Shown piece after piece: positions 26 to 60,013 of a stretch of DNA of 64,000 nt; the first letter of the stretch is position 1; each line of letters begins with the position of its first letter. The notes under the pieces are model-generated. The model searched no databases. It was not told where the DNA came from and saw only the letters and a program-made list of their open reading frames with translations. Location: assembly GCA_964627085.1 (NCBI GenBank), contig CAZVIP010000002.1, forward strand, positions 4,416 to 68,415, read 5' to 3'. The DNA is from an uncultured Candidatus Saccharibacteria bacterium. Its GTDB lineage: Bacteria > Patescibacteriota > Minisyncoccia > Phycocordibacterales > CAIZLB01. The position numbers were made by a program, and so were the translations under genes.

Positions 26-328
26 ATGATTGCCTTTTTTCAAAAGTCACTCAGAGCTGCGGTCACGCAGTATCGCCGGAAACTACACAGTCCAAAAAAA
101 GGGCCAGCAAAAGTCACCCTGAAAAGAGTCCATCAATTCCCTGTCATCAAGGAAAGGATTCCGCTCTGGCGCCAAATGATAATCTGTTTCAGTCATCTTA
201 CTTCTGCTGGCGAGGATCTCTCACCAATTGAAAAAGAAGATTGGAATAGACATTCTGGTCAACCAATGAGTCACTTCTTAGACCCTGAATTCAGACAGGC
301 GCTGGAAGAAATGCGTTGGGCTTATTAG
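26..328 (+). CDS. hypothetical protein (100 aa)
   Basis: Intact ORF followed by a strong rho-independent terminator; local GC higher than most of the window. Confidence 0.3.
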   Translation: MIAFFQKSLRAAVTQYRRKLHSPKKGPAKVTLKRVHQFPVIKERIPLWRQMIICFSHLTSAGEDLSPIEKEDWNRHSGQPMSHFLDPEFRQALEEMRWAY

Positions 329-356
329 CACTAGTCTCAAGCAAAAAAACCACACG

Positions 357-399
357 GCCAACCTCACCCTCTTCTGGGTAAGGTTGGCCTGTTTTTTTA
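357..399 (+). terminator. rho-independent terminator (GC hairpin ggccaacc..ggttggcc followed by a T run)
   Basis: Perfect inverted repeat followed by ttttttt; an A run upstream makes it potentially bidirectional. Confidence 0.6.
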
Positions 400-429
400 T
401 TTATATTTTTTCACAATTAAAATTCAAAA

Positions 430-451
430 GGCGCGAGCTTGCGCTCGCGCC
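430..451 (-). terminator. terminator hairpin ggcgcgagc-ttgc-gctcgcgcc downstream of the HAAO-like gene
   Basis: 9-bp GC stem; T-rich tract follows on the minus strand. Confidence 0.5.
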
Positions 452-478
452 TTATATCAAAGTTTGCTCACAGCATTG

Positions 479-994
479 CTATGCTGATTCAAACAATTGA
501 ACCACATTCTGGATAAATGACGTCATCGTTCCAAGTAGCTGAACCAGCTCGGCAGGTCCGGTAAAATCAAGACCGGTATTTGATCCAGACAAATGGACAA
601 AGCGCTCTACCGGCAGCGACTTCCACTCGTCACCAGACTCCTTTTCTCCAGCCTGCCCATATGTGACATCACACAAGGGATGAGGATCGGCGCCTGGCGG
701 TAAATAAAACAACTGTATCCTGAGCAATCGCCCCACCAATTTGACACTGATAAGGTTGTGCTCTACGACACAATGGTCGGCTTGGGTTATTTGGATACCA
801 AAGCGCTCACCTTCAGTCATGTGATACACCTCACGTGCCGAACTTCCGAAAAATAAAGGCATCTTCTCATCCTCAAACCTTTGCGAAATCGCAGCGGACG
901 CAGGAATCTTGAATACACCAGTTGTGCAGTATTGCTGCATGAATCTAGGGAGTCTATTCAATACATCCTCCCAGCTATGCATTATTTTTGCCAT
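479..994 (-). CDS. nbaC: 3-hydroxyanthranilate 3,4-dioxygenase-like cupin (HAAO/NbaC family)
   Basis: Residues YHMTEGERFG..H..V and LFYLPPGADPHP match the HAAO cupin motifs YHIEEGEE and FLLPA.VPHSP; about 170 aa as expected; lies in a GC-rich block. Confidence 0.55.
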   Translation of the reverse strand: MAKIMHSWEDVLNRLPRFMQQYCTTGVFKIPASAAISQRFEDEKMPLFFGSSAREVYHMTEGERFGIQITQADHCVVEHNLISVKLVGRLLRIQLFYLPPGADPHPLCDVTYGQAGEKESGDEWKSLPVERFVHLSGSNTGLDFTGPAELVQLLGTMTSFIQNVVQLFESA

Positions 995-1189
995 AGTTTT
1001 TTTGTTTCTATTGTTGTGGGGATTAGCCCGATTTTGTTTTGTTCTAAGCGATATGTTCCAGTGTTAGAACAATGCATTTGAAACGAGAACTGAGTGTGCG
1101 TGCGGTAGTTAGCCTCAACTGCACCGACTACAGCAAAGCTGAATCTACAACAAGGTTATCATGCCAGTGACCATGTTTCAATATAAAAA

Positions 1190-1222
1190 AGAGGCACGAC
1201 CCTGCTTTGGGTGCGTGCCTCT
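1190..1222 (-). terminator. rho-independent terminator after the 1265..1945 gene
   Basis: Hairpin gaggcacg...cgtgcctc followed by a T run on the minus strand. Confidence 0.6.
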
Positions 1223-1264
1223 TCGAGATTAATTCTGCTTTGAACTGAACTTTGACACCGAATG

Positions 1265-1945
1265 TTAACCGAAATATTTTGACACATCGCCAACAAACTC
1301 CATGACGGAGTCCACAAAGGTTGCCAACTCATCAGGACCAAACTGATCCGAAAGTTGTAAGCCGTGAGGAAAACATGTCGCATACTTAGTCGTCGGCAAA
1401 CCGAAGCTCGGATGTTCTGATCCCGTATCAATGACTCGACCCTCCTTGTCCATATATTGCTTAGGGTCAGCTGAATACTTGTCGCTATATATGCAGATAT
1501 ATTTAGCACTAAATACGAGTATTGGGGCCATGCTTGCTGGTTTTTGCACCGCTATCACTGTATCAGCATTGGCCTGACCTTGTGCCACCTGTTCGCCCCT
1601 GTCATTGCTAAATGGCTTTATCTGGAATAATTCAATGGAAAGCAAAGCTCCGGCATCAACCGTATGGTGCTTGTGGCCTTCGGCGGATGCATCACCAAGA
1701 CAGATATGAAAAGCAAATTGCATATCAAACCTATAATACACTGGATCAAAAACCTTATAGCGATCCCTGCCGAAGCCAAGTGGGACACTACCACCCCTAT
1801 GATCGTGCGTCCCGTTTGTAGCAAAAGCAAAACCTGTCCGCACAGGTAATATCTCTCTACTGCAGACCCCAGACCCGTAATTGGCAAGGAATGAACTCGC
1901 CATTTTTTGGACATGTGCCCAGTTAAAATTCTGAAGCTGTTTCAT
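1265..1945 (-). CDS. hypothetical His-rich putative metal-dependent enzyme (226 aa)
   Basis: Long ORF with its own terminator; contains GTHDH and HKHH clusters; no confident family assignment from sequence alone. Confidence 0.4.
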   Translation of the reverse strand: MKQLQNFNWAHVQKMASSFLANYGSGVCSREILPVRTGFAFATNGTHDHRGGSVPLGFGRDRYKVFDPVYYRFDMQFAFHICLGDASAEGHKHHTVDAGALLSIELFQIKPFSNDRGEQVAQGQANADTVIAVQKPASMAPILVFSAKYICIYSDKYSADPKQYMDKEGRVIDTGSEHPSFGLPTTKYATCFPHGLQLSDQFGPDELATFVDSVMEFVGDVSKYFG

Positions 1946-2121
1946 CGTGTTTTATCTTTCTATGTTTGACGTTGTATGTAGATGGCAGTTGATGCGGTTT
2001 GCATAAACCAAGCCATATAAAGTGAATGAACTAGCAAGATTAAAGTACCATGAAGATTTCAACATGGCAATATGCCATATGCGCGCCTAAGACACAAAGT
2101 CAAAGTATTTTTGAAAATAAA

Positions 2122-2142
2122 AAGCCCTTTTGCGAAGGGCTC
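2122..2142 (-). terminator. terminator hairpin agccctt-ttgcg-aagggct
   Basis: Hairpin followed by a T run on the minus strand, downstream of the 2183..2584 gene. Confidence 0.5.
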
Positions 2143-2182
2143 TTTATCCTAAATAATTAACAATAGATTTAGCAAAAACAGA

Positions 2183-2584
2183 CTAACTATTCTTGATATA
2201 TTTCTTTGATGCAAAATAGAAAATGAGGACGACACCGACAAATGCAATCGATTCATATGTCAAAATTCCTGTTTGCAATAATTTCCAAAGTCTAAATCCC
2301 CCACCAATCAAGACCAAAATGATTGTCGACTGAGTTACCACCTTGTTCGCATCTTTGATGATGTAAGTCTTATTAACATATTTTGATGAATAAATAACAC
2401 CAAGCCAAATACTCACCAAACTGAGCAACATAAGTATTGGCATGAGTAGTTTTGGATTATCTGCAAAAGCCAATGTAAGCGGAGCACCGATAATAAGTGC
2501 GATCAAAAAAGGTACAGCAAAACCAGCGGTTAACCAATGTGTTGTAGCAATATACCAATCTGATGAATTCTTTTTTTGTTTCAT
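2183..2584 (-). CDS. integral membrane protein (4 predicted TM segments), unknown function
   Basis: Hydrophobic-segment pattern in the translation. Confidence 0.45.
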   Translation of the reverse strand: MKQKKNSSDWYIATTHWLTAGFAVPFLIALIIGAPLTLAFADNPKLLMPILMLLSLVSIWLGVIYSSKYVNKTYIIKDANKVVTQSTIILVLIGGGFRLWKLLQTGILTYESIAFVGVVLIFYFASKKYIKNS

Positions 2585-2700
2585 AATTTAATTATATATT
2601 ACTTGTTAAAAGATTTGAATACACAGCTTGACTCAAACTCTAGTGCATGGGACGATATCTTCGAAAGTTTCAAAGCAAATAAGGACTGCTTTGGAACAAT

Positions 2701-3480
2701 ATGTTCTTTGTCCTACAACCAATAATTAATATGAGTCAAGAAACTCCAAGTGCCACTAGTGCACCACCAGTAATAGGTCCAGTAACCACTGGTGCTACAG
2801 ACCCAGCCACTGACCACAGCCAAGAACCAGAACACGCATTCACCCTTCAGACCGAAACAGCTGTCTTGCCTGTGGACCCGGATGCTGAACTGCTTCAACA
2901 GCTACAACCAGAGGATATACTCAAGCAAATAAGAGCTGCTGTCACTGAATTTATCGAGAAAGCAAATAAGAGTTTACGCGAAGCAGAATCTAGGTCTAAC
3001 GAGCTACGCAGATTACTCGAGGTATACCCTCCTGGCGTAGTGAAAGCCTTACTCGAAAAATGCACAATGGGCACGGTTTTTTCTCCAATGATTACCGCAG
3101 CTATGCGAGATCACAACAGGAAAATAAAGTTACCGAGCACAGGCGATGAGCCAGCGTTCTTGACTGAAGTGGACTTTAAGAGGCTTCCGACACTGATTGC
3201 GCATTATCTGATACCAATACTCAATGAAACCTACGCAATCGGTGAGATGTTTAAAATAGCTGACATCAGAGCTTTGCTAAGAGCAAAATTCGGAAAGAAA
3301 GGTAATGGTAATTGGGCGGCCAGTGGCTACTTGGCAACCGCTCTAAACAACAGAACAGAGGGGCTTGTATTCACTCAAGGTGAGTTTACACCTACAACCA
3401 GGGTATCAACATCAACCTATCACCGAACCCAAGTGTTAACCTTGAAGGAAAAATGGCTCTCTCATCTTAATGATCTGTAA
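2701..3480 (+). CDS. hypothetical protein with Pro/Thr-rich N-terminus
   Basis: ORF followed by a terminator at 3493-3523; real start may be the internal Met (MSQET) at about 2731. Confidence 0.45.
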   Translation: MFFVLQPIINMSQETPSATSAPPVIGPVTTGATDPATDHSQEPEHAFTLQTETAVLPVDPDAELLQQLQPEDILKQIRAAVTEFIEKANKSLREAESRSNELRRLLEVYPPGVVKALLEKCTMGTVFSPMITAAMRDHNRKIKLPSTGDEPAFLTEVDFKRLPTLIAHYLIPILNETYAIGEMFKIADIRALLRAKFGKKGNGNWAASGYLATALNNRTEGLVFTQGEFTPTTRVSTSTYHRTQVLTLKEKWLSHLNDL

Positions 3481-3492
3481 GCTGAATAAATC

Positions 3493-3530
3493 GCGCACCC
3501 TTCCCTTTTTGGGACGGGTGCGATTTGTTT
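3493..3530 (+). terminator. rho-independent terminator
   Basis: Hairpin gcgcaccc...gggtgcg followed by tttgtttt. Confidence 0.6.
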
Positions 3531-3550
3531 TATGTGTATTTATGCGGTAG

Positions 3551-3964
3551 TTAAATTTCCAAACCCGCAAGCAAACCCTTGATTTCGTCTTTGATTCTTC
3601 TGGTTTCAATGAGGTCTTTGTTTTTTGGATCGAGCACAAACCATCGAATTAATTTTGGAGAATCAATTAAGTATTGTGGTAAATCTTCATCTTCAAGAAT
3701 TGCGATGACTTTATCAGAATTATTTACCATATCTTCAGTTACCTGCTTTCGTATTGCAGTGCTGATATCTAGACCCTCCTCTAACATGACATCAATGACA
3801 GCCTGTGTGAGTGGTACTAAATTTCCGATTGGTTCCTCGGGGCCACTTAATTTTGTGCCCGCGGATACTGCCTCGTATTTATTTGCATATAGTTTATGTA
3901 CCAAGAATTCAGCCATTTGACTTCTACCTACATTTCCTCGGCATAAGAATAGGATTTTTTTCAT
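3551..3964 (-). CDS. low-molecular-weight phosphatase family protein (LMW-PTP/ArsC fold)
   Basis: N-terminal P-loop LFLCRGNVGRSQMAE (CX5R(S) signature); no ArsC resolving cysteines, so a phosphatase is more likely than an arsenate reductase. Confidence 0.6.
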   Translation of the reverse strand: MKKILFLCRGNVGRSQMAEFLVHKLYANKYEAVSAGTKLSGPEEPIGNLVPLTQAVIDVMLEEGLDISTAIRKQVTEDMVNNSDKVIAILEDEDLPQYLIDSPKLIRWFVLDPKNKDLIETRRIKDEIKGLLAGLEI

Positions 3965-4081
3965 AGATGGATTGTATCATTTTTTTGTTTGGCTTTTATA
4001 TACAATTTAACCCCACGCAGACCAGTGCTGCGCGGGGCTTTGAAGTTAAGCGGGTTTAAGTGAGATTGAGCAGGTGTTTAA

Positions 4082-4738
4082 CTATTTATGTCGAAGCTCA
4101 ATAATATAGGTCTTACTCAATTCCCCACTTTTTTGTGCATGATAAGCATATGTGAGTTTTGAGCCATTTAAATAAGCTTCTGGTAGTGGGTCAAAATCCG
4201 CAAAACGAGAGCACATGACAAGTGCACGGCCATTCTTTGTCAAATACCTTGGAAGTTCATCGACAAACTTTTTGAGTAAAGTTGCATCATCACTCCAGAG
4301 TGACCACTTCCCTATTTTTGATTTAACGCGTTTTGGATGCGAAGCTGGTGCATTAAAAAGAATTAGATCATATTTTCCTTTTACTTCACTAAATACATTT
4401 GATTGTTTAATTTTTATTGCCGCATTATTTTGTCTAAAGTTTTCTTGTGCATTTACGACTGCATCTTCTGTGATATCAGTTGCATAGATATTGCTTACGC
4501 CTTTTTTCCATACAAGTAGCGCTAGTATGCCACACCCTGTGCCAAGGTCGAGCACTTTTTCATCTTGAGCGATGGGATATTTTTTTAAAAGAGAAATAAA
4601 CATTTTTGTAGACTTTCCATTTTTCGGGTTCCAAATGCCTGCTCCACTCTTGAGGGTGAGTCCTGCGATACGAATTTTTGCTGGAGCATTATCCGGTGCT
4701 CGAGAGTCGATAAATGAGAGGTGTTCTCTGATATTCAT
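4082..4738 (-). CDS. class I SAM-dependent methyltransferase (small-domain, HemK/RsmC-like)
   Basis: Motif I VLDLGTGCGILAL and a post-motif NAPAS variant of the NPPY/F motif; the listed ORF begins with TTG overlapping the GNAT stop, so the internal ATG (MNIREHL) is the likelier start. Confidence 0.6.
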   Translation of the reverse strand: MNIREHLSFIDSRAPDNAPAKIRIAGLTLKSGAGIWNPKNGKSTKMFISLLKKYPIAQDEKVLDLGTGCGILALLVWKKGVSNIYATDITEDAVVNAQENFRQNNAAIKIKQSNVFSEVKGKYDLILFNAPASHPKRVKSKIGKWSLWSDDATLLKKFVDELPRYLTKNGRALVMCSRFADFDPLPEAYLNGSKLTYAYHAQKSGELSKTYIIELRHK

Positions 4739-4803
4739 ATGGTTGTGTGTTGTGTGACTAAGGTGTTGTGTGTGAATAATAATATAGACATATAACACAT
4801 CTT

Positions 4804-5307
4804 TCAAGTTATATAGTGATTCGGTTTTTTAAGACTTACTTGCTCTTTTATATTCGTGAACACGACAAACGATATCTTTGAATTTATTTGAACGATGTTT
4901 ACTGTAAAGTTTTTTTTGTATGACTCAATCAGATGTTTATTATCATTATCTACTATACCCACAAACTTTCGCTCAGTTGATTTAACTTCTAATATTGCTT
5001 GTTTAAGCAATTCATATCCATATCCGTGATTTCTATATTCTGGTTTTGTGAATAAGCATGATGCGAATATAAAATCATCGAATAATGCTTTTGCTTTTTC
5101 AGTTATCTCAGAGTCTTCAGGACAAATATCGAACAAAGCAATACCTGAGACAAAATTTGATTCTTTGTATAAAAATAATAGTTTGGAATAAAGAGTTTCA
5201 ATGCCATTAATCCAGGGTATTTCTTTGAAATTTTGTTGTATTAATCTAATGTATTCAAAGTAATCAGAATCTTTTTTGGAGTTTTGTGTGATAGTGTTTA
5301 TGTTCAT
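4804..5307 (-). CDS. GNAT family N-acetyltransferase
   Basis: Motif A RNHGYGYELLKQAI (R/Q-x-x-G-x-G/A). Confidence 0.65.
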   Translation of the reverse strand: MNINTITQNSKKDSDYFEYIRLIQQNFKEIPWINGIETLYSKLLFLYKESNFVSGIALFDICPEDSEITEKAKALFDDFIFASCLFTKPEYRNHGYGYELLKQAILEVKSTERKFVGIVDNDNKHLIESYKKNFTVNIVQINSKISFVVFTNIKEQVSLKKPNHYIT

Positions 5308-5345
5308 TTCATTGGTGATTATCTATTTATCAATCAACCACGATG

Positions 5346-5705
5346 CTATGAAATAATCTGAATGTAGTTAAATATAAAATAACTTGCAATCAGAATCGCA
5401 ACACCTATAGCTATAAGCAACCAAAATAATTTACGTCGGTTGCTTGTATATAATTTCTTTAACAGAAAAATATAGCTTGTTACAACAAATAGTGAAATGA
5501 AGGTAATCACCATCGCAATATACGATAGAGTGGCATCGTCTCCTTTAAACATGTATTCAGACAATGAACACGAATTGTCAACAGAAATTGAACATTGATA
5601 TTTACCCTCTATGCCTACCAGATTAATTTTTTTGAGCACATCGATGGTTCTCAAAAAGATAATGATAATTGGTGCAATGAGGCTAATCAGTGTAATTTTT
5701 TTCAT
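5346..5705 (-). CDS. small membrane protein (3 TM segments), unknown function
   Basis: Hydrophobic segments; same strand within the KMO operon. Confidence 0.4.
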   Translation of the reverse strand: MKKITLISLIAPIIIIFLRTIDVLKKINLVGIEGKYQCSISVDNSCSLSEYMFKGDDATLSYIAMVITFISLFVVTSYIFLLKKLYTSNRRKLFWLLIAIGVAILIASYFIFNYIQIIS

Positions 5706-5775
5706 TTGTTAATTATACCATACAGACCCTTATCCGAATTGTAAGTAAAATTTAGTCGCATATTTGTAAAGTGGC

Positions 5776-6324
5776 TTACCTACTATCACGTAATGTTTCC
5801 TTTAGAGGATCGAAATTTACAAACTGGATACCACCTGAAACGGCATCATCGAGATTTAAATGACCTCTAACATGTGCTTCTTCATGCTGATATAGACGAG
5901 CTTTAAATCCATCAATTTTTTCAGAACGATTAATTCCTGTGCCATCTGTCCACTCCATCACTATCCATTCAGGTCGTTCAACATCGGCAGCGAGGATACC
6001 TGCACTCATGCAGAGCTCTTTATAAAAATTAGTCGTGGTAGATTTTTCTATAATTCTTGGATTAATAAACACTTCCGTCTTGTCATCCAGAAAGGTTATG
6101 AAAACAGATTTACCCATTCCAATTTGTGGCGCTGCGAGACCTCTGCCATAGCCGGTAATTTCACGATACTTGAGTAATACCTTTTCGAGCTTCTTTGCAA
6201 TTTCTAGTCCATCTTCCAAAGATGTTTCTTCGGTCTTTTCACGTAGCACAGCATTACCTGCATAATGTATCTCGGGTATCTCTTTTAGGATGATTTTGAA
6301 GATTTCTATCTTGTCGATATTCAT
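5776..6324 (-). CDS. divergent peptide deformylase-like metallohydrolase (PDF paralog)
   Basis: PDF motif 1 GRGLAAPQIG; motif 2 variant ELCMS (canonical EGCLS); motif 3 QHEEAHVRG (HExxH); immediately downstream of the KMO-like gene. Confidence 0.6.
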   Translation of the reverse strand: MNIDKIEIFKIILKEIPEIHYAGNAVLREKTEETSLEDGLEIAKKLEKVLLKYREITGYGRGLAAPQIGMGKSVFITFLDDKTEVFINPRIIEKSTTTNFYKELCMSAGILAADVERPEWIVMEWTDGTGINRSEKIDGFKARLYQHEEAHVRGHLNLDDAVSGGIQFVNFDPLKETLRDSR

Positions 6325-6342
6325 GGGGTTATTGTAGCATTG

Positions 6343-7548
6343 TTAATCTTTGAACCTTAATTTACTTTCATCCACCAAACTACTATGGGGCACACCTTCA
6401 AAATCAAGCCTTATTACTGCAATCGGTGTTTCATTTCTAAATATACCCTTAATAAATCCTGCTAACTTATTCCAAACCGTTGGTGGTTTTTGATAACTAG
6501 AATTAATAATAGTTACATAATGTTCAGCTGAAAGCACTGATGCAGCTAATCCTTGTTTTACCCTTTCTTTTGAAAATTCATTCAAGTCTTTATTTTTAAT
6601 AATATACTCATACAAAACGCCAACATCTTCCAGTCCGAGGTTTACTCCTTGCCCCATAAATGGAAGTATCGTGTGAGCGGCATCACCAATAAGAACAGTG
6701 TTACTTTTTTCATCATAATACGTATTCATTTCTATGATATTTAAATCTGCAAAACGAAGCGACTTTAAATCATTTTCAGTGTTTAGATTTTCATATATGT
6801 GAGGAAAAGATTCTTGTACAAAATTAATTACACTATCAGAATTTTCTGTTACATCTTTTGGAAGTATAAGTGTACATTTTAGTGATTTTTTTGAATTAGG
6901 CATGCCTACCATGCAATGATCTTTACGTGGCCATATATTGATAGCATGTAGGGCTTGTTTTGGTACATGATCCATCCCGAGTGATACTTGCGTGTATCTG
7001 TGTGAAAACTTTTCTTTGTGAATTTGTATTGATAGATCAGATACATTCACTAACTCTCGGACTTTTGAATTTGCACCATCTGCGCCGACAAGTAAATCTC
7101 CTTTTTCAAAAGTTTTAATTTCGCCGTTTACATCAAAAGTTAATGTATCTGAAGTACTGTTTACGAGTTGGTGGTTTGAATACAAAGATATATTTGGTGT
7201 ATTTTTTGCTTCAGTAAAAATTATGTCCGCAAGAGTGTTTCTGTCTACTGCATAATTTACCCATTCTTTTTTTCCATATGGCATAAAAACAGAATCCCAT
7301 GTCGGTAGGTGTCGAAATCGACCTGTAAGAGGAAAAGCTTTTTGTAAGAATATGTCCCATAGTCCCAGATCCTTCACTATCTTTTGACCTCGAGGTGAGA
7401 TAAGTAGTGATATAGATGGAAAACCCTCAGATGTTTGACCGACTTCTGACCTTTTTTCAAATAGGTTTATTTTGTAACCTGCTCGAGCAAGGAGTATGGC
7501 GAGGCCTGAGCCGACTGGTCCGGAACCGATGATTGAGATGGTTTGCAT
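6343..7548 (-). CDS. kmo: kynurenine 3-monooxygenase-like FAD-dependent monooxygenase
   Basis: N-terminal GSGPVGSG Rossmann motif; HAINIWPRKDHCMVGMPNSKKSLKCTLILP matches the KMO signature HAMHIWPR..MMIALPN.D.SFTCTLF.P; GDAAH..PF.GQG.N.G.ED motif present; likely start at the MQTIS Met. Confidence 0.7.
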   Translation of the reverse strand: MQTISIIGSGPVGSGLAILLARAGYKINLFEKRSEVGQTSEGFPSISLLISPRGQKIVKDLGLWDIFLQKAFPLTGRFRHLPTWDSVFMPYGKKEWVNYAVDRNTLADIIFTEAKNTPNISLYSNHQLVNSTSDTLTFDVNGEIKTFEKGDLLVGADGANSKVRELVNVSDLSIQIHKEKFSHRYTQVSLGMDHVPKQALHAINIWPRKDHCMVGMPNSKKSLKCTLILPKDVTENSDSVINFVQESFPHIYENLNTENDLKSLRFADLNIIEMNTYYDEKSNTVLIGDAAHTILPFMGQGVNLGLEDVGVLYEYIIKNKDLNEFSKERVKQGLAASVLSAEHYVTIINSSYQKPPTVWNKLAGFIKGIFRNETPIAVIRLDFEGVPHSSLVDESKLRFKD

Positions 7549-7670
7549 AGATAGAGTATAGCAATTGGTATGACACTTGTACCAGACGTTAAGTTTATGC
7601 ATTGCTCGCGCAAAGGAATATCTATCATTTTATATCACTTCTCAATGGATACTACAAACGTAGGCAAAAG

Positions 7671-7706
7671 ACGAGGCCGGTGCAAAAAAATGGTTTGCAC
7701 CGGCCT
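7671..7706 (-). terminator. strong 12-bp-stem hairpin (ggccggtgcaaa...tttgcaccggcc) followed by a U-rich tract on the minus strand
   Basis: Perfect inverted repeat; sits upstream of the KMO operon and about 480 nt downstream of the 8189 gene. Confidence 0.4.
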
Positions 7707-8188
7707 GTGTATGAAACCTCATTGAGGTGGAACAACTGTTGCGTTTGGGATCTGTGAGCGACGAATCCTGTTCCATGTTTTGCATGGTATACAAGAAATC
7801 TTGTACGCATACCCGGTGACTTACCTATTCCTCACCATTGATTACTCTTTGGCTACTTTTCGACGCAGTAGTATATTCTTTATCTTTTCTTACATCCTCT
7901 TTTGAAGGCTGTTTTCTTCCGAATTTCTTCGGTGCAGAATTGGGATTTCCCTTGGTCTGCTATTGTGGTGTACCACCCGTTGGCATATTACGGGGCTACT
8001 ACAGAGTCTTGTACTCGGCGTTTGGCATGGCATATTTATACACCAGATATAAATCTGGTCAACCCTTCTCGAACACTCTAATCCACTCTCTCAATGAGGG
8101 CCCACTTGCATATCTCTCAGGTCCACTGAATAACCCCCCTTCGAACAAGAAGCCGTATTCACGGATTGATAACCTCGATTAATCATCT

Positions 8189-8707
8189 CTAACTTAATAT
8201 ACCAACCCTAACCAGTGCATCTTCTAAATATTCACCATGCTTAAGAATTATTTTCTCATTTGGTTGTTTTAAGAAATCTTCAAAATCTGTTTCAATTGAA
8301 TTTGCAACCCTGTTAACAAATTCTTCATTTGCACCCCTATTTCTCGCACGGGTTTTATACTCTTCCTTGCAAATGGGATCTGGATACGCTAGTAAAAAAT
8401 TAATTCCATAATCTCTCATCTCTTTAAAAGGCATGCAAGGTGCGATGAGTATTATTGCGTGTTCGTTATTTTTACTTTCTTTAATGATCGCATCGTAATA
8501 GTTAGTTGGCCACTCTGGATTAATATCACGTTTTGTTGACTTGAGAGATTCTTTGTTTTTCACAGTTTTTTGCTCATCTGTCAAAATGTACTTATGGTCA
8601 CCGCTTGGCAGTTCTATTATCTCCTTATGTTTTTTTGTTAAATATGTTTTACCTGTACAAATCCAGGCGCTGATTATGATTGGTTTTTTATTGACCTCTT
8701 TTTTCAT
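8189..8707 (-). CDS. P-loop NTPase/kinase-like protein
   Basis: Walker A-like ISAWICTGKTY; the listed ORF start is a TTG inside the 81-bp repeat, so the real start is probably ATG (MKKEVNKKPIII). Confidence 0.5.
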   Translation of the reverse strand: MKKEVNKKPIIISAWICTGKTYLTKKHKEIIELPSGDHKYILTDEQKTVKNKESLKSTKRDINPEWPTNYYDAIIKESKNNEHAIILIAPCMPFKEMRDYGINFLLAYPDPICKEEYKTRARNRGANEEFVNRVANSIETDFEDFLKQPNEKIILKHGEYLEDALVRVGILS

Positions 8708-8747
8708 ATGTTTAATGTAATTATGATTTTTGTGCCTGTTGTTGAAG

Positions 8748-8828
8748 TGTGCGTCGCTCGCACAAGTGTATTTTGCTCCAAGTTTTCGCAAAATACTGAG
8801 TGCGCCGACATCACGATTTTATAGTCGC
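8748..8828. repeat. 81-bp perfect direct repeat, copy 1 (second copy at 10319..10399)
   Basis: Identical 81-nt strings at both positions with two internal hairpins (ttgtgcg-tcgct-cgcacaa; gtattttgc..gcaaaatac) and a TATAAAAT box on the minus strand; flanks diverge with residual similarity. Confidence 0.85.
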
Positions 8829-9137: not shown

Positions 9138-9623
9138 ATGATCCCACCAATTCCGAGCGATTTGATCCAATTTGGACTTTTTAAAGACTTCAAGGTCCAG
9201 ATACCCTTTCTTGACCAATGGGCCTTCCTCCTAAACAACTTTCACATGCACTTTCCGACAGTTGATGGAGTGTGTGATGGAGAGACAGTAGAAGGACGCG
9301 AGGCTGTCAGTGTAGCTATAAATAAGTTGATAGGTCAATGGGAGAATCCTTTACGTGCATATCTCATCATATACCCTGATCAATTTAACCCACTCGATTG
9401 CTACAGCGACCTTAGACTCTCGCAAAGTTCAAAAGAATTCCATGAAGTCCTCTATGTTGTAGCAGAGAAAGAAGGATTTTCTCGACAGCAACTAAGTGAC
9501 GCCACCGCGCGACGGTATTCTTGGACTATGGAGAGTGACACTAGTAAATGGGTGGAAGTTTTAGCCCCCATCTATATCGCTATGCGCGAGAAGGGTTACT
9601 CACACCGTGACCTGACTGGCTAA
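9138..9623 (+). CDS. hypothetical protein (161 aa)
   Basis: ORF followed by a palindromic terminator; GC elevated. Confidence 0.4.
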   Translation: MIPPIPSDLIQFGLFKDFKVQIPFLDQWAFLLNNFHMHFPTVDGVCDGETVEGREAVSVAINKLIGQWENPLRAYLIIYPDQFNPLDCYSDLRLSQSSKEFHEVLYVVAEKEGFSRQQLSDATARRYSWTMESDTSKWVEVLAPIYIAMREKGYSHRDLTG

Positions 9624-38510: not shown

Positions 38511-39221
38511 GTGGATATATCAAAAAAACATCAAAACACCAATAAAATGCATAATTTAGGCCCTAAAACTAAATCTAAAAAACAAGTTCCTGAGATTGTC
38601 CAGGTTGGCCACCCTGCCCTGCACAAACCCGCCAAAGAAGTACCTGTGGAAGAAATTGGCACAGCAAAAATAAATGACGTCATCGAGCAGATGATTCTTG
38701 CTCTTGAATCGCAAAGAGATGGCGTAGGTATCGCCGCTCCACAAATCGGAGTGAGTCTACAAATTTTTATTGTTGCTGGTTTTGTCTATGACCGAATTAA
38801 AATTGCAGACATCAAAAAGAAATACAGCAATATGATCGGTGTCCTTTCTTCAGAAGAAATCAAAGAAAAAATCAAGGCGGAAGTAAAATTGCTCAAGAAA
38901 AACCCGCATCATATTTTCATCAACCCTGTCATCACAAAAGAATCGAAAGAAAAAAAATGGATGGACGGCGAAGGATGTCTCTCAGTAAGATGGCTCTATG
39001 GTAAAGTGTATCGCTCAACAAAAGTAAGTATCAAGGCATATGACAAAAAAGGTAAACAAACTGAGAGAGGTGCGAGTGGCTTCCTTGCCCATATTTTCCA
39101 ACACGAAGTCGATCACCTTGCCGGTATTCTATTTATAGACAAAGCAAAAGACCTCGAAGAATTCGATCCTGAAGACATTAAAAAAGAGCAAAAGAAAAAA
39201 GACAAAAACGATGAACTCTAA
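38511..39221 (+). CDS. def: peptide deformylase (canonical)
   Basis: GVGIAAPQIG, EGCLS, QHEVDHLAG motifs; carries an internal insertion and a Lys-rich C-terminal tail. Confidence 0.85.
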   Translation: MDISKKHQNTNKMHNLGPKTKSKKQVPEIVQVGHPALHKPAKEVPVEEIGTAKINDVIEQMILALESQRDGVGIAAPQIGVSLQIFIVAGFVYDRIKIADIKKKYSNMIGVLSSEEIKEKIKAEVKLLKKNPHHIFINPVITKESKEKKWMDGEGCLSVRWLYGKVYRSTKVSIKAYDKKGKQTERGASGFLAHIFQHEVDHLAGILFIDKAKDLEEFDPEDIKKEQKKKDKNDEL

Positions 39222-40179
39222 TTCAAATTTGCATTCAATAGATGGTGTCCAGCCGACACAAGTCAGCGCGCTTGCACCAACAAAAACAGAAGAGATTCCA
39301 GAATGTCGTTTTGTATTTTTTGGGACATCAGAGCTTTCAGTTATTGTCCTCAAAAAGCTTCAGTCAGTTGGCCTTATACCCTCTGCAATAATTACAACAC
39401 CTGATAAACCAAAAGGGAGAAAACTTGTCCTCACACCACCTGACTCGAAGGTGTTTGGCATGGAGCATAATATACCCGTACTTCAATTTGCAAAACTAGA
39501 CGAAGATGCGATTGCGGAAATCAAAAAAATAGAATGTGATTTTTACCTTGTCGCCTCATATGGGCTGATTATTCCCCAGTCGATTCTCGATATTCCAAAA
39601 CTCGGTGTCCTCAATATTCACCCGTCACTTCTACCTATGTATAGAGGCGCGTCCCCTATTCAACAAGCAATACTTGATGATAGACATGCTACTGGCATAA
39701 CAATTATGAAGATGGACGCCAAAATGGACCACGGCCCGATACTCTATCAAGCAAAAAGACAAAACCAATTAGATTGGCCAAAGACATATACCGAACTTGA
39801 ACATGAACTTGCGATACAGGCAACAAATGCGCTTTTGCACATACTTCCCTCTTTTCTCAAAAAACAAATTATTGAGATCGAGCAAAATCACGGTGATGCG
39901 ACATTCACCAAAAAAATCCAAAAGGTTGATGGTCTAATTGATACAGAAAAACTAACAGGTGAAATCGGTCGCGCACAATTCCTCAAATTTTGTGCATATG
40001 AAGTCTGGCCTACGACATATTTTATAATCAAGAAACAAGGTGTCGATACAAGAATCAAAATCACAAAAGCACATTGGGATCGCGAATCTGCAAGTATGAT
40101 GATTGACAGAGTTATACCTGAAGGACAAAAAGAAACTGACTACGGCGATTTTCTTGAGCGAGTGAAATTATATTATTAA
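39211..40179 (+). CDS. fmt: methionyl-tRNA formyltransferase
   Basis: FVFFGTSE, SLLPMYRGASPIQ motifs; overlaps def (def-fmt operon). Confidence 0.85.
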   Translation: MNSNSNLHSIDGVQPTQVSALAPTKTEEIPECRFVFFGTSELSVIVLKKLQSVGLIPSAIITTPDKPKGRKLVLTPPDSKVFGMEHNIPVLQFAKLDEDAIAEIKKIECDFYLVASYGLIIPQSILDIPKLGVLNIHPSLLPMYRGASPIQQAILDDRHATGITIMKMDAKMDHGPILYQAKRQNQLDWPKTYTELEHELAIQATNALLHILPSFLKKQIIEIEQNHGDATFTKKIQKVDGLIDTEKLTGEIGRAQFLKFCAYEVWPTTYFIIKKQGVDTRIKITKAHWDRESASMMIDRVIPEGQKETDYGDFLERVKLYY

Positions 40180-45564: not shown

Positions 45565-46752
45565 TTATTCCTTACCATACACCCCATCAAATGGATGTGA
45601 ATTTTTCTTCAACAAAACATGAACTAAATACCTCGCCATAACCATCGAGGTGAGCTGAAGCCCTGCACCGCAAATGCGACTCATATTCCCTTTCTGTGAG
45701 AAATGCGGAATACCCTTTTTCGAGAGACCATACATACCTGTCCATGCATATTCAAAATCAATATCCAAGGTTGGGAAAATCCTTTTGATGAAAGAGGTCA
45801 TACTTTTAAAATGCACCTTATTTAAGGTTCTGTCTTTTTCAATACTTTTCGTTTGTTCATCACCAGATCCAACGAGCAGCCTCTTATCTTTTGTGACTTT
45901 GAAATAATGATAATTTACCAATTCATTTTCTATCATCATGTCATTGTCTTCGAGCTTCAAGAATTTGAGCTCTGCTGGGGTGAGTGTTCGCGTGATACCA
46001 ATTGTAGTCCGAAAATGATTGATTGGATTTTTTTCATCATAACTATCGGTCGTGAAAATAATATGTTTGTATGAAATATTTGCACCAGATGAAGTTTGAG
46101 CGACTGATTTTTTGACTGTGCCAGTTTTTGTAATTCCTGAATTTTCGAAAATTGCTGCACCATGTTTGACTGCAAGCAATGCAAGTTCCTGTACGAGTGC
46201 AAGCGGATTAACCGATAGGCCTTTGTGAACTTTTTCTCCGAATACATAACCTTCAATGTTGATATCTTTTTTGATTTCAGATCGATTCACAGCGCTGACC
46301 CATTTGTTCACTTTCTGCCTAATGATTAAATCTTTTGTTACCGCCTCAGCACCCTTGATATCATGTGCAAGTACATAGACATCTGTCTCTTCTAAGTCGC
46401 ACCTAAGTTTTTCTTCGATAATTATTTTTTTGATGAAAGAGTACATTTCATCGTGCGCTGTCCAGTATGACTTTGTAAACTCTTCGCCATATTTTTTGAT
46501 GAGCATTTCGGAATTTGTTCCCTCGAGTTCTGTCAAAATCATTCCTGCAGAAAAGCCTGTAGCACCACTTCCGATGGTGTCTTTTTCGACAAGGATAATT
46601 TTGCCAGCATTCTCTTTTGCCAACAAATAGGCCGTCATGATACCCGATATCCCGCCACCAACAATTAAATAATCGCAATCTAAACTCCCCTCTGCGGCTG
46701 GAAATTCAGTGCTATGTGGATTTGTCCAAAATGAATTTTGCATAGAATACAA
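45565..46752 (-). CDS. FAD-dependent oxidoreductase (DAO/glycine oxidase family)
   Basis: DYLIVGGGISGIMTAY Rossmann motif, ..VEKDTIGSGATGFSAGMI. Confidence 0.7.
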   Translation of the reverse strand: MYSMQNSFWTNPHSTEFPAAEGSLDCDYLIVGGGISGIMTAYLLAKENAGKIILVEKDTIGSGATGFSAGMILTELEGTNSEMLIKKYGEEFTKSYWTAHDEMYSFIKKIIIEEKLRCDLEETDVYVLAHDIKGAEAVTKDLIIRQKVNKWVSAVNRSEIKKDINIEGYVFGEKVHKGLSVNPLALVQELALLAVKHGAAIFENSGITKTGTVKKSVAQTSSGANISYKHIIFTTDSYDEKNPINHFRTTIGITRTLTPAELKFLKLEDNDMMIENELVNYHYFKVTKDKRLLVGSGDEQTKSIEKDRTLNKVHFKSMTSFIKRIFPTLDIDFEYAWTGMYGLSKKGIPHFSQKGNMSRICGAGLQLTSMVMARYLVHVLLKKNSHPFDGVYGKE

Positions 46753-58896: not shown

Positions 58897-58930
58897 AAAA
58901 GCCGAGCACTGTGTGCTGGCTTTTTTCTTT
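58897..58930. terminator. hairpin gccgagcac-tgt-gtgctggc with a T run (bidirectional)
   Basis: Inverted repeat flanked by A and T runs, upstream of the RhuM-like gene. Confidence 0.45.
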
Positions 58931-59029
58931 TGCTGCTCCGGGTGTTGGATTATGTTAGAACCATATTACAACATATCCACTGAAATATTTAATATTGATT
59001 ACAGAATGAAGGGTGATAAAATTTTACTA

Positions 59030-60013
59030 ATGACAAAAGCAATACCAAAAAATAATATTGTTATTTACCAAGCAAAATCCGGTGCAATTGAGCTTAAGGG
59101 AGATTTTAAACATGAGACCGTATGGGCTACACAAGCACAGATTGCTGAGGCTTTTGATGTAAATGTTCGTACAATTAACGAGCACATTACAAATATTTAT
59201 AAAATAAACGAGCTTAACAAAGACTCAACTATCCGGAATTTCCGGATAGTTCAAAAAGAAGGCAAAAGAGAGGTAGAACGAGAGATTGGTCATTATAACC
59301 TAGACATGATTCTCTCTGTTGGATATCGAGTCAATTCAAAGAATGCTACAAAATTCCGACAATGGGCAACAAAAACTCTCAAATCACACATTGTAGACGG
59401 CTATACCATAAACCCGAACCGTATCGAAAAGAACTACGAAGCATTTTTATCTGCTGTTGAAAAAGTTAAACTACTCATTCCACAAGATACCATAGTCACA
59501 ACCAACGACACCCTTGAACTTGTTAAGCTCTTTGCAAACACTTGGTTTTCTCTTGATGCATATGACAAATCTGAATTCACTAAAAAGAACCTAACAAAAA
59601 AGCAGATTAAGATTAGTGGCCAAGAATTAACTTCAGCTATTCAAGAACTAAAGCAAGAGCTACTCGTAAAAGGTGAAGCTACAGACTTATTTGCAAACGA
59701 AAGACAAGCGGACAGTATTGAAGGAATAGTCGGAAATGTATTCCAATCATTTGGAGGTAAAAATGTCTATGAAAATATTGAGGAAAAAGCTGCTCACCTA
59801 CTTTACTTCATCGTAAAGAACCATCCATTTTCTGATGGAAATAAGAGAAGTGGAGCTTTTGCATTTGTGTGGTTCCTAAAGAAAGCGAAGATCCTTGATA
59901 CCAATAAAATAACACCTGAAGCACTAACTGCACTCACCTTGCTTGTTGCAGAAAGTGATCCGAAAGAAAAGGAACAGGTTACTGGGCTTATTGTAATGTT
60001 GTTGGGAAAGTAA
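59030..60013 (+). CDS. RhuM-family protein with C-terminal Fic/Doc-type domain
   Basis: N-terminal IVIYQAKSGAIELKGDFKHETVWATQAQIAEAFDV and HYNLDMILSVGYRVNSKNATKFRQWATK (RhuM signature); C-terminal HPFSDGNKRSGAF (Doc-type Fic motif HxFx(D/N)GNKR). Confidence 0.7.
   Translation: MTKAIPKNNIVIYQAKSGAIELKGDFKHETVWATQAQIAEAFDVNVRTINEHITNIYKINELNKDSTIRNFRIVQKEGKREVEREIGHYNLDMILSVGYRVNSKNATKFRQWATKTLKSHIVDGYTINPNRIEKNYEAFLSAVEKVKLLIPQDTIVTTNDTLELVKLFANTWFSLDAYDKSEFTKKNLTKKQIKISGQELTSAIQELKQELLVKGEATDLFANERQADSIEGIVGNVFQSFGGKNVYENIEEKAAHLLYFIVKNHPFSDGNKRSGAFAFVWFLKKAKILDTNKITPEALTALTLLVAESDPKEKEQVTGLIVMLLGK

Follow-up and report, generated by a model that had tools for sequence, protein, structure and literature searches.

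A kynurenine 3-monooxygenase-family gene without pathway neighbours in DNA of an apparent Paceibacteria-type bacterium

Analysis of a 64-kb stretch of bacterial DNA (the window) and of about 10 kb past each of its ends, about 84 kb of genome in all, identifies on the minus strand, at positions 6343 to 7548, a gene for a 401-residue member of the kynurenine 3-monooxygenase (KMO) family. The protein carries intact cofactor motifs and is under purifying selection; its substrate pocket differs from that of known KMOs; no gene of the kynurenine pathway lies beside it; and the open reading frame (ORF) at 479..994, which a preliminary description of the window had taken for a 3-hydroxyanthranilate 3,4-dioxygenase (HAAO, also 3-HAO), does not encode that enzyme. 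Our preferred reading, held with moderate confidence, is that the gene would encode a stand-alone accessory hydroxylase, derived from the KMO scaffold, with a non-canonical aromatic substrate and a role outside the pathway from tryptophan to quinolinate.

The KMO-like protein and its substrate pocket

6343..7548, minus strand: gene for a KMO-family class A hydroxylase of aromatic compounds dependent on flavin adenine dinucleotide (FAD), 401 amino acids (PF01494, PDB sequence matches, AlphaFold2 (AF2) model and Foldseek, ratio of nonsynonymous to synonymous substitution rates (dN/dS))

An in-frame ATG upstream, at 7602, would lengthen the protein to 419 residues; the gene callers and the 86%-identical ortholog P0002 back the start at 7548. 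The 401-residue form has the single Rossmann-type FAD domain of class A flavoprotein aromatic hydroxylases, with the motifs GxGxxG (residues 8-13), GADG (155-158) and GDAAH (288-292) and, in addition, an IWPR...PN block (205-218); its GSGPVG, GADGANS and GDAAH strings sit in invariant or near-invariant columns of the family. Pfam FAD_binding_3 (PF01494) matches residues 22-332 of the 419-residue form at 1e-23. The best matches in the PDB by phmmer are the KMOs of human (5x68, 3e-41), rat (4e-36), Pseudomonas fluorescens (1e-34) and yeast (5e-25), followed by the next family (flavin monooxygenase, UbiH and TetX) at about 1e-14 (first at 3e-14), and the UbiH-type models of NCBIfam score far under their cut-offs (Ubi-OHases, 97 bits against a cut-off of 225 bits). 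An AF2 model built on a 120-sequence alignment (predicted local distance difference test score (pLDDT) 87.3, pTM 0.88) finds KMOs as all of its top 35 Foldseek matches in the PDB (E 7e-34, TMq 0.87), with UbiH next at 9e-24. Within the family-specific HIWPR...ALPN...CTLF block, 27 sequences show no variation at I205, W206, P207, R208, P217 and N218, and 120 family members none at the W, P, R, P and N of the IWPR...PN block; the strings HAINIWPRK, MVGMPN and KCTLILP, to which the preliminary description had pointed, are literally present.

By homology, then, the 401-residue protein is a member of the KMO family with intact cofactor motifs, and many of its homologs at about 30% identity carry KMO annotation. 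The earlier KMO call for 6343..7548 stands at the level of the protein family, where Pfam, PDB matches, fold and the IWPR...PN block agree and where the best matches are KMOs rather than generic UbiH-type hydroxylases; as EC 1.14.13.9 it is not secure, given the state of the pocket (see below). Comparison with the 86%-identical ortholog yields a dN/dS of 0.115 over 400 codons, indicative of purifying selection, which together with native-like codon use implies that the gene is maintained and functional.

According to a review of the P. fluorescens enzyme (PfKMO) in complex with kynurenine (PMC6376250), the substrate carboxylate is bound by Arg84, Tyr98, Asn369 and Tyr404, the ring pocket consists of Leu213, Ile224, Leu226, Phe238 and Met373, and emphasis is placed on a C-terminal domain that closes over the substrate. 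Ten PfKMO-numbered positions were compared, the reference being 116 homologs in which each position is at least 97% conserved:

Arg84 of PfKMO: Arg77 in the window protein, kept
Tyr98 of PfKMO: Tyr91 in the window protein, kept
Asn369 of PfKMO: His343 in the window protein, changed
Glu372 of PfKMO: Thr in the window protein, changed
Met373 of PfKMO: Ile in the window protein, changed
Tyr404 of PfKMO: Val378 in the window protein, changed
Leu213 of PfKMO: Ile in the window protein, changed
Ile224 of PfKMO: Val in the window protein, changed
Leu226 of PfKMO: Met in the window protein, changed
Phe238 of PfKMO: Ile in the window protein, changed

At all pocket positions checked, the ortholog P0002 and a 71%-identical fragment, P0003, have the same residues as the window protein, only Arg84 and Tyr98 being matched and the other eight of the ten differing. 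Two of the four carboxylate ligands (Asn369 and Tyr404) are thus replaced in the window protein and in both close relatives, and none of the five ring contacts is identical, yet all five are still hydrophobic. Past the Tyr404 column the window protein has 23 residues, compared with 59 in the KMO of a canonical operon (about 36 fewer) and 48-70 in most family representatives, in a region where the model reaches a pLDDT of only 52-59; its last 48 residues include no Tyr. Because the pocket differs at eight of ten positions, two of the four carboxylate ligands among them, assignment to EC 1.14.13.9 is not safe.

The protein is also isolated within its family. In 1.84 billion representatives searched exhaustively with HMMER there is one close cluster (P0002), the next protein being 35% identical; a word-indexed search added only P0003; and a contig search of GTDB species representative genomes with the KMO-like protein found no relative. 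Judged by sequence, it is a divergent lineage, no protein beyond its own cluster exceeding 35% identity. In a neighbour-joining tree of 150 family representatives, the clade from the candidate phyla radiation (CPR) forms a long branch inside a 131-leaf group, with P0135 as an unreliable sister; the phylogeny that had been proposed for identifying a donor therefore delivers the long branch, and no donor, whether Bacteroidetes or eukaryote, can be named from it. The loci of the nearest relatives are uninformative, P0134 lying amid transposases and P0135 on a 1.4-kb contig.

The nearest named homolog from outside the CPR, P0004 of Endozoicomonas, has a short C-terminus as well. At its locus (L086, 9223..13999) the KMO-like gene overlaps a gene for an HpcH/HpaI aldolase and is followed by a trio of radical-SAM, Memo and AMMECR1 genes; no kynurenine genes are present.

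The ORF at 479..994 and the search for pathway partners

479..994, minus strand: strain-specific ORFan of 171 amino acids, formerly 'HAAO-like'; only its own cluster is found
356..453, minus strand: two strong terminator-like hairpins with stems of 11 and 14 bp, directly after the stop of ORF 479..994
1265..1945, minus strand: second ORFan, 226 amino acids, with a weak PD-(D/E)XK hint (E = 0.011)

The preliminary description ascribed HAAO cupin signatures to ORF 479..994, and the strings YHMTEGE and LPPGADPHP are indeed literally present. Nevertheless the ORF has no match in Pfam at E<=10, PF06052 included, none in NCBIfam or PHROG, and no sequence match in the PDB at E<=10, and among 5.8 billion protein clusters its own cluster is the sole match. 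The positive control was a genuine, PF06052-tagged 3-HAO from a canonical operon (L088:8152-8712). A tblastn search of the window with this protein returned nothing at E<=10; direct comparison of the two proteins gave 1.1 bits by phmmer --max (filters off) and a Smith-Waterman score of 40 (z = 2.4, equalled by 2.5% of shuffles), in an alignment that did not pair the claimed motifs. When the motifs are aligned by eye, R-x-x-Y-H is common to both proteins and His58 is present; the residue at His+6, which is the iron-binding Glu in 3-HAO, is Arg64, the second His is shifted by one position and there is no SPQR arginine, so that the His-x5-Glu...His pattern with its arginines does not occur in the ORF. 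The corresponding residues of the control protein are H50, E56, H94, R46 and R98, which we take to be the iron site and the substrate arginines from the structure of the R. metallidurans enzyme. A single-sequence AF2 model of the ORF, of low confidence (pLDDT 42.7), shows residues 27-113 as a beta-rich core; a Foldseek search of the PDB with this low-confidence model found nothing below E = 0.03 and no cupin among the matches. Lacking any profile or PDB match, with 1.1 bits against the genuine enzyme, Arg64 in place of the iron-binding Glu and the distribution of an ORFan, ORF 479..994 is rejected as HAAO; the former call is an artefact of short-motif resemblance.

With this call falls the inference, drawn in the preliminary description, that HAAO (479..994) and KMO (6343..7548) form an aerobic kynurenine branch leading to quinolinate and NAD or to 3-hydroxyanthranilate. 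What speaks for such a pair, namely a genuine KMO-family member and an R-x-x-Y-H...E...F..Q and LPP....H.P resemblance with roughly cupin-like spacing, is outweighed by the failure of the ORF in the sequence tests above and by the arrangement of the genes, which lie 5.3 kb and seven genes apart, whereas in the canonical gammaproteobacterial locus (L088-L090) 3-HAO, kynureninase, KMO and tryptophan 2,3-dioxygenase (TDO) are contiguous in that order. We consider the two-enzyme branch very improbable.

Nor are other partners in evidence. Neither the window nor the approximately 10 kb past each end yielded a gene for TDO, kynureninase, HAAO, formamidase or nadC, and tblastn and Pfam scans for pathway genes in the window and in three further loci, one overlapping the region (L001) and two carrying the ortholog P0002 (L004 and L005), were likewise negative. 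KMO function is thus without the expected genomic association with TDO, kynureninase, HAAO or nadC in about 84 kb and at the loci of the relatives. The observation in the preliminary description that TDO and kynureninase are missing from the window is borne out, and the wider search for kynA, kynU and nadC that it proposed yields none of them within the about 84 kb covered. A literature search on kynurenine and Patescibacteria turned up only gut-microbiome correlation papers. A second potentially O2-using flavoenzyme of the window, a DAO-family FAD-dependent oxidoreductase, is encoded at 45565..46752 on the minus strand (PF01266, 2e-36).

ORF 479..994 is of some interest in its own right. Its frame is the best of six, its G+C content at third codon positions (GC3) is 0.49 where native genes have 0.33, and it falls 3 standard deviations short of them in codon score; the best frame and the two terminator hairpins past the stop make it probably a real gene, and one of foreign composition. 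The preliminary description placed it in a GC-rich block at about 1-2000, which exists, if modestly: the first and second kilobases have GC contents of 0.454 and 0.446 (window mean 0.393, standard deviation 0.029) and rank second and third of 64 bins, the bin at 17-18 kb being higher. ORFans of foreign composition occur at 26..328, 479..994, 1265..1945, 2701..3480 and 9138..9623, with GC3 of 0.40-0.49 and low codon scores; each has the best of its six frames, and together they flank a native-looking row of genes from the KMO-like gene to a phosphatase gene. The two that were searched (479..994 and 1265..1945) have no homologs outside their own clusters. Horizontal acquisition of the GC-rich block, as proposed earlier, is reasonable in view of the GC3 and the atypical codons; what the block holds is ORFans and not an HAAO gene. 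As to its origin, there was no phage DNA match, no plasmid protein match, no PHROG and no homolog.

Gene neighbourhood and host

7674..7706, minus strand: hairpin resembling an intrinsic terminator, with a 13-bp stem and a T-rich tail, ahead of the KMO-like gene
7555..7563, minus strand: extended -10-like element TGCTATACT, 6 nt upstream of the ATG
5776..6324, minus strand: peptide deformylase paralog, 182 amino acids (PF01327, 1e-28; GLAAPQ, ELCMS and HEEAH intact)
5346..5705, minus strand: membrane protein, 119 amino acids, downstream of the deformylase paralog
4804..5307, minus strand: GNAT acetyltransferase (Pfam)
4082..4807, minus strand: MTS/PrmA-type methyltransferase (Pfam)
3551..3964, minus strand: low-molecular-weight phosphatase (Pfam)

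The KMO-like gene appears to be transcribed from its own promoter. The hairpin at 7674..7706 is predicted to part it from the upstream transcript, and TGCTATACT is probably its promoter, from which a leaderless or near-leaderless mRNA is predicted. The only upstream stretch conserved between the window and the orthologous loci L004 and L005 is one of about 60 nt that includes TGCTATACT, and the motif recurs before another gene in L004. Rfam returned no match for the 590 nt without an ORF that precede the KMO-like gene.

Farther upstream, 7674..8188 on the minus strand comprises about 515 nt without an ORF on that strand, between the stop of a phrog_4182-like gene (ORF 8189..8791, E 1.6e-20) and the strong terminator. 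This stretch, which may be a structured noncoding RNA or a long 3' untranslated region, has a minimum free energy of -157 kcal/mol (z = -4.0 against 100 shuffles), matches no Rfam family even at E<=1 and is not conserved upstream of the ortholog in L004 and L005. Logan contigs from many runs (SRR134440xx; L001, L002, L097 and L098) all stop at about 8780, inside the phrog_4182-like ORF, which suggests a strain-variable boundary or a repeat.

Downstream, the deformylase paralog follows the KMO-like gene after 18 nt on the same strand, an adjacency absent in the relatives. It is the lower-scoring of two copies, a canonical def being paired with fmt at 38511..40179 on the plus strand. From 6343 down to 3551 no terminator could be detected on the minus strand, and the co-oriented genes at 3551..5705 look like housekeeping or modification genes, not genes of the kynurenine pathway.

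The surroundings of the gene differ in each genome. The 86%-identical ortholog, in L004 on the 618-kb contig ERZ4208449 NODE_1, lies between tRNA-Gln and a module of serine recombinase and ParB-methylase; on its own contig, the 71%-identical fragment P0003 is followed by an unrelated 218-residue gene on the opposite strand. Three relatives carrying the KMO-like gene thus have three different downstream neighbours, and the gene itself is the sole one common to the window and the L004 and L005 loci, which share no housekeeping gene by which horizontal transfer could be calibrated against vertical descent. In L004 (9846..12591), tRNA-Gln beside a large serine recombinase and a ParB-N6 methylase is a typical edge of an integrated element; a search for att-like repeats of this tRNA-Gln found none, the promoter-like motif alone being repeated.

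The host is confirmed by proxy as a CPR bacterium, a Paceibacteria-type member of the Patescibacteria, in keeping with the 'CPR-like genome' of the preliminary description. The prolyl-tRNA synthetase of the window, of archaeal/eukaryote type, is 72-77% identical to proteins of metagenome-assembled genomes (MAGs) that bear the labels Candidatus Paceibacterota, Parcubacteria, Nomurabacteria and Minisyncoccia, and the genes present are in line with this: two MreB, MreC, two PBP2-type transpeptidases, RsmH, RRF, RseP, GreA, large surface proteins and the def-fmt pair. At least 12 sequencing runs, assembled independently, join the region to L21, RecR, DnaB and CysRS, and this speaks against a chimeric contig. 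A defence or mobile region is suggested by a RhuM/Fic protein at 58913..60013 on the plus strand and, just past the right end of the window (L099, 1901..9410), an AAA/nSTAND3 ATPase, an S8 peptidase and a serine recombinase.

Alternative readings and comparison with known enzymes

The chief alternative to a non-canonical hydroxylase is a genuine L-kynurenine 3-monooxygenase (EC 1.14.13.9), which would make 3-hydroxykynurenine either from kynurenine scavenged from a host or in concert with pathway genes elsewhere in the genome. It accounts for the facts that all the best sequence and structure matches are KMOs, that many homologs at about 30% identity are annotated as such and that Arg84 and Tyr98 are conserved, and there is a precedent in a survey of 577 groundwater CPR MAGs (PMC12577380; Microbiome 2025), in which KEGG-based annotation assigned KMO to genes of two Paceibacteria and one Microgenomatia, alongside other O2-using enzymes. 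It accounts poorly for the replacement by His and Val of Asn369 and Tyr404, which occur in at least 97% of 116 close homologs (Asn369 also in the human, rat and P. fluorescens structures), with no Tyr in the last 48 residues; for the change of all five hydrophobic ring contacts and the shorter C-terminal domain; and for a setting in which about 84 kb yield neither TDO nor kynureninase nor HAAO and the neighbourhood is not conserved. We regard it as possible but doubtful, the remodelled pocket and short C-terminus making a non-canonical aromatic substrate somewhat likelier than L-kynurenine. Several observations nonetheless count against the reading that we prefer. The pocket changes are only borderline enriched over general divergence (Fisher p = 0.055), the window protein agreeing with just 50% of all family-conserved columns; His occupies the Asn369 position in 19 of 154 diverse family representatives, and the two examined, P0140 and P0195, belong to eukaryotes, have no operon context and say nothing about KMO function; the C-terminal 50 residues of the AF2 model are of low confidence (pLDDT 52-59); and the neighbour-joining tree leaves the place of the clade within the KMO family unsettled. 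The equivalents of Arg84 and Tyr98 are retained and His can form hydrogen bonds as Asn does, so that L-kynurenine is still a possible substrate, and the search for pathway genes covers about 84 kb, so that such genes may lie elsewhere in the genome.

Two further explanations are less probable still. The deformylase paralog and the KMO-like enzyme might act in sequence, the former deformylating an N-formyl aryl amine (for example N-formylkynurenine, in the place of kynurenine formamidase) and the latter hydroxylating the product: the genes share a strand, with a gap of 18 nt and no terminator in it, and the paralog, whose metal site is intact, is one of two deformylase copies, the other belonging to a canonical def-fmt pair elsewhere. 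Yet both relatives lack the adjacency, with a recombinase in L004 and L005 and the opposite-strand 218-residue gene on the P0003 contig, and no TDO was found that could make N-formylkynurenine. We know of no deformylase that acts on N-formylkynurenine and judge the coupling improbable. It is also very unlikely that the KMO-like gene is a decaying relic, or a contaminant of assembly or binning, without function. Such genes are rare in the CPR (3 of 577 MAGs; PMC12577380), this one is solitary, and its ortholog in L004 adjoins a serine recombinase and ParB-methylase; but a dN/dS of 0.115, an intact ORF with all cofactor motifs, native-like codon use and a linkage to L21, RecR, DnaB and other housekeeping genes that was assembled independently from at least 12 samples are not what a relic or contaminant would show.

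If the preferred reading of a stand-alone accessory hydroxylase is correct, 6343..7548 would encode a working flavoprotein descended from the KMO family, with a catalytic cycle like that of its relatives: NAD(P)H would reduce the bound FAD, O2 would convert the reduced flavin to the C4a-hydroperoxyflavin, and this would hydroxylate an electron-rich aromatic ring. Arg77 and Tyr91, the counterparts of Arg84 and Tyr98 in PfKMO, would grip the carboxylate of the substrate, which would most likely be a compound of the aryl-amino-acid type whose handling departs in some respect from that of L-kynurenine by canonical KMOs, possibly another aromatic metabolite obtained from the host or the environment. 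The gene would be an accessory one with its own promoter, present in few related Paceibacteria and in a differing neighbourhood in each, outside the pathway from tryptophan to quinolinate. More tentatively, the window protein, P0002 and P0003 may represent a new substrate specificity that arose from the KMO scaffold, that of a solitary, mobile hydroxylase dependent on O2 and NAD(P)H and acting on an aromatic carboxylate, of host or environmental origin, other than L-kynurenine; in a rarer variant of this idea, it would share the processing of an N-formylated aryl amine with the deformylase paralog next to it.

An aerobic branch for de novo NAD synthesis in a minimal CPR bacterium would have been a real surprise. 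The evidence removes that reading and leaves standing one orphaned KMO-family hydroxylase without a pathway. In view of the KMO-annotated genes in groundwater MAGs (PMC12577380), a KMO-type gene in the CPR is not new; what is new here is that it is found alone, in an isolated and divergent clade with a changed pocket, and that its supposed HAAO partner is a motif artefact. The gene provides a small, concrete case in which Paceibacteria retain an oxygen-using enzyme under selection, in agreement with reports of oxic adaptation in the CPR (PMC12577380), and, given the remodelling of its pocket, the enzyme is a reasonable place to look for a new specificity in a medically important family. Such a specificity, if real, would mean direct use of oxygen by an otherwise fermentative episymbiont. 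Accordingly, KMO calls of the KEGG type in CPR MAGs should not be equated with tryptophan catabolism or NAD synthesis where partner genes are missing.

The likeness of ORF 479..994 to HAAO (PF06052) is confined to the short strings R-x-x-Y-H and LPP...H.P and a beta-rich predicted core; the two have no detectable sequence similarity, and the position of the iron-binding Glu is Arg in the ORF. The window gene resembles the CPR genes of the groundwater survey (PMC12577380) in being a rare, KMO-annotated, O2-using gene in Paceibacteria; those calls rest on automated KEGG annotation. Also similar are the short-C-terminus KMO-like proteins of 400-445 amino acids (P0004 of Endozoicomonas and the metagenomic P0134, P0136, P0139, P0144 and P0150), which are among the top-scoring relatives of the window protein at 30-35% identity and, where their context is seen, have no kynurenine-pathway neighbours. 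Like the window protein, they have only 20-35 residues past the Tyr404 column, Val, Ile, Pro or a gap in place of Tyr404, and Met or Leu at the position of PfKMO His320; unlike the Paceibacteria clade, most of them retain Asn369 and Glu372, and the neighbour-joining tree does not reliably group that clade with these proteins, none of which is characterised. Known KMOs (P. fluorescens 5NAK and 6FOX, human 5X68, yeast 4J36) differ from the window protein in lacking its eight pocket substitutions and in possessing about 36 more C-terminal residues, and the window gene is not in an operon with TDO, kynureninase or HAAO; at 26-29% identity over nearly the full length, the known enzymes have in common with the window protein the class A fold (TMq 0.87), the same FAD motifs, the IWPR...PN block and the Arg/Tyr carboxylate clamp (Arg84 and Tyr98 in PfKMO).

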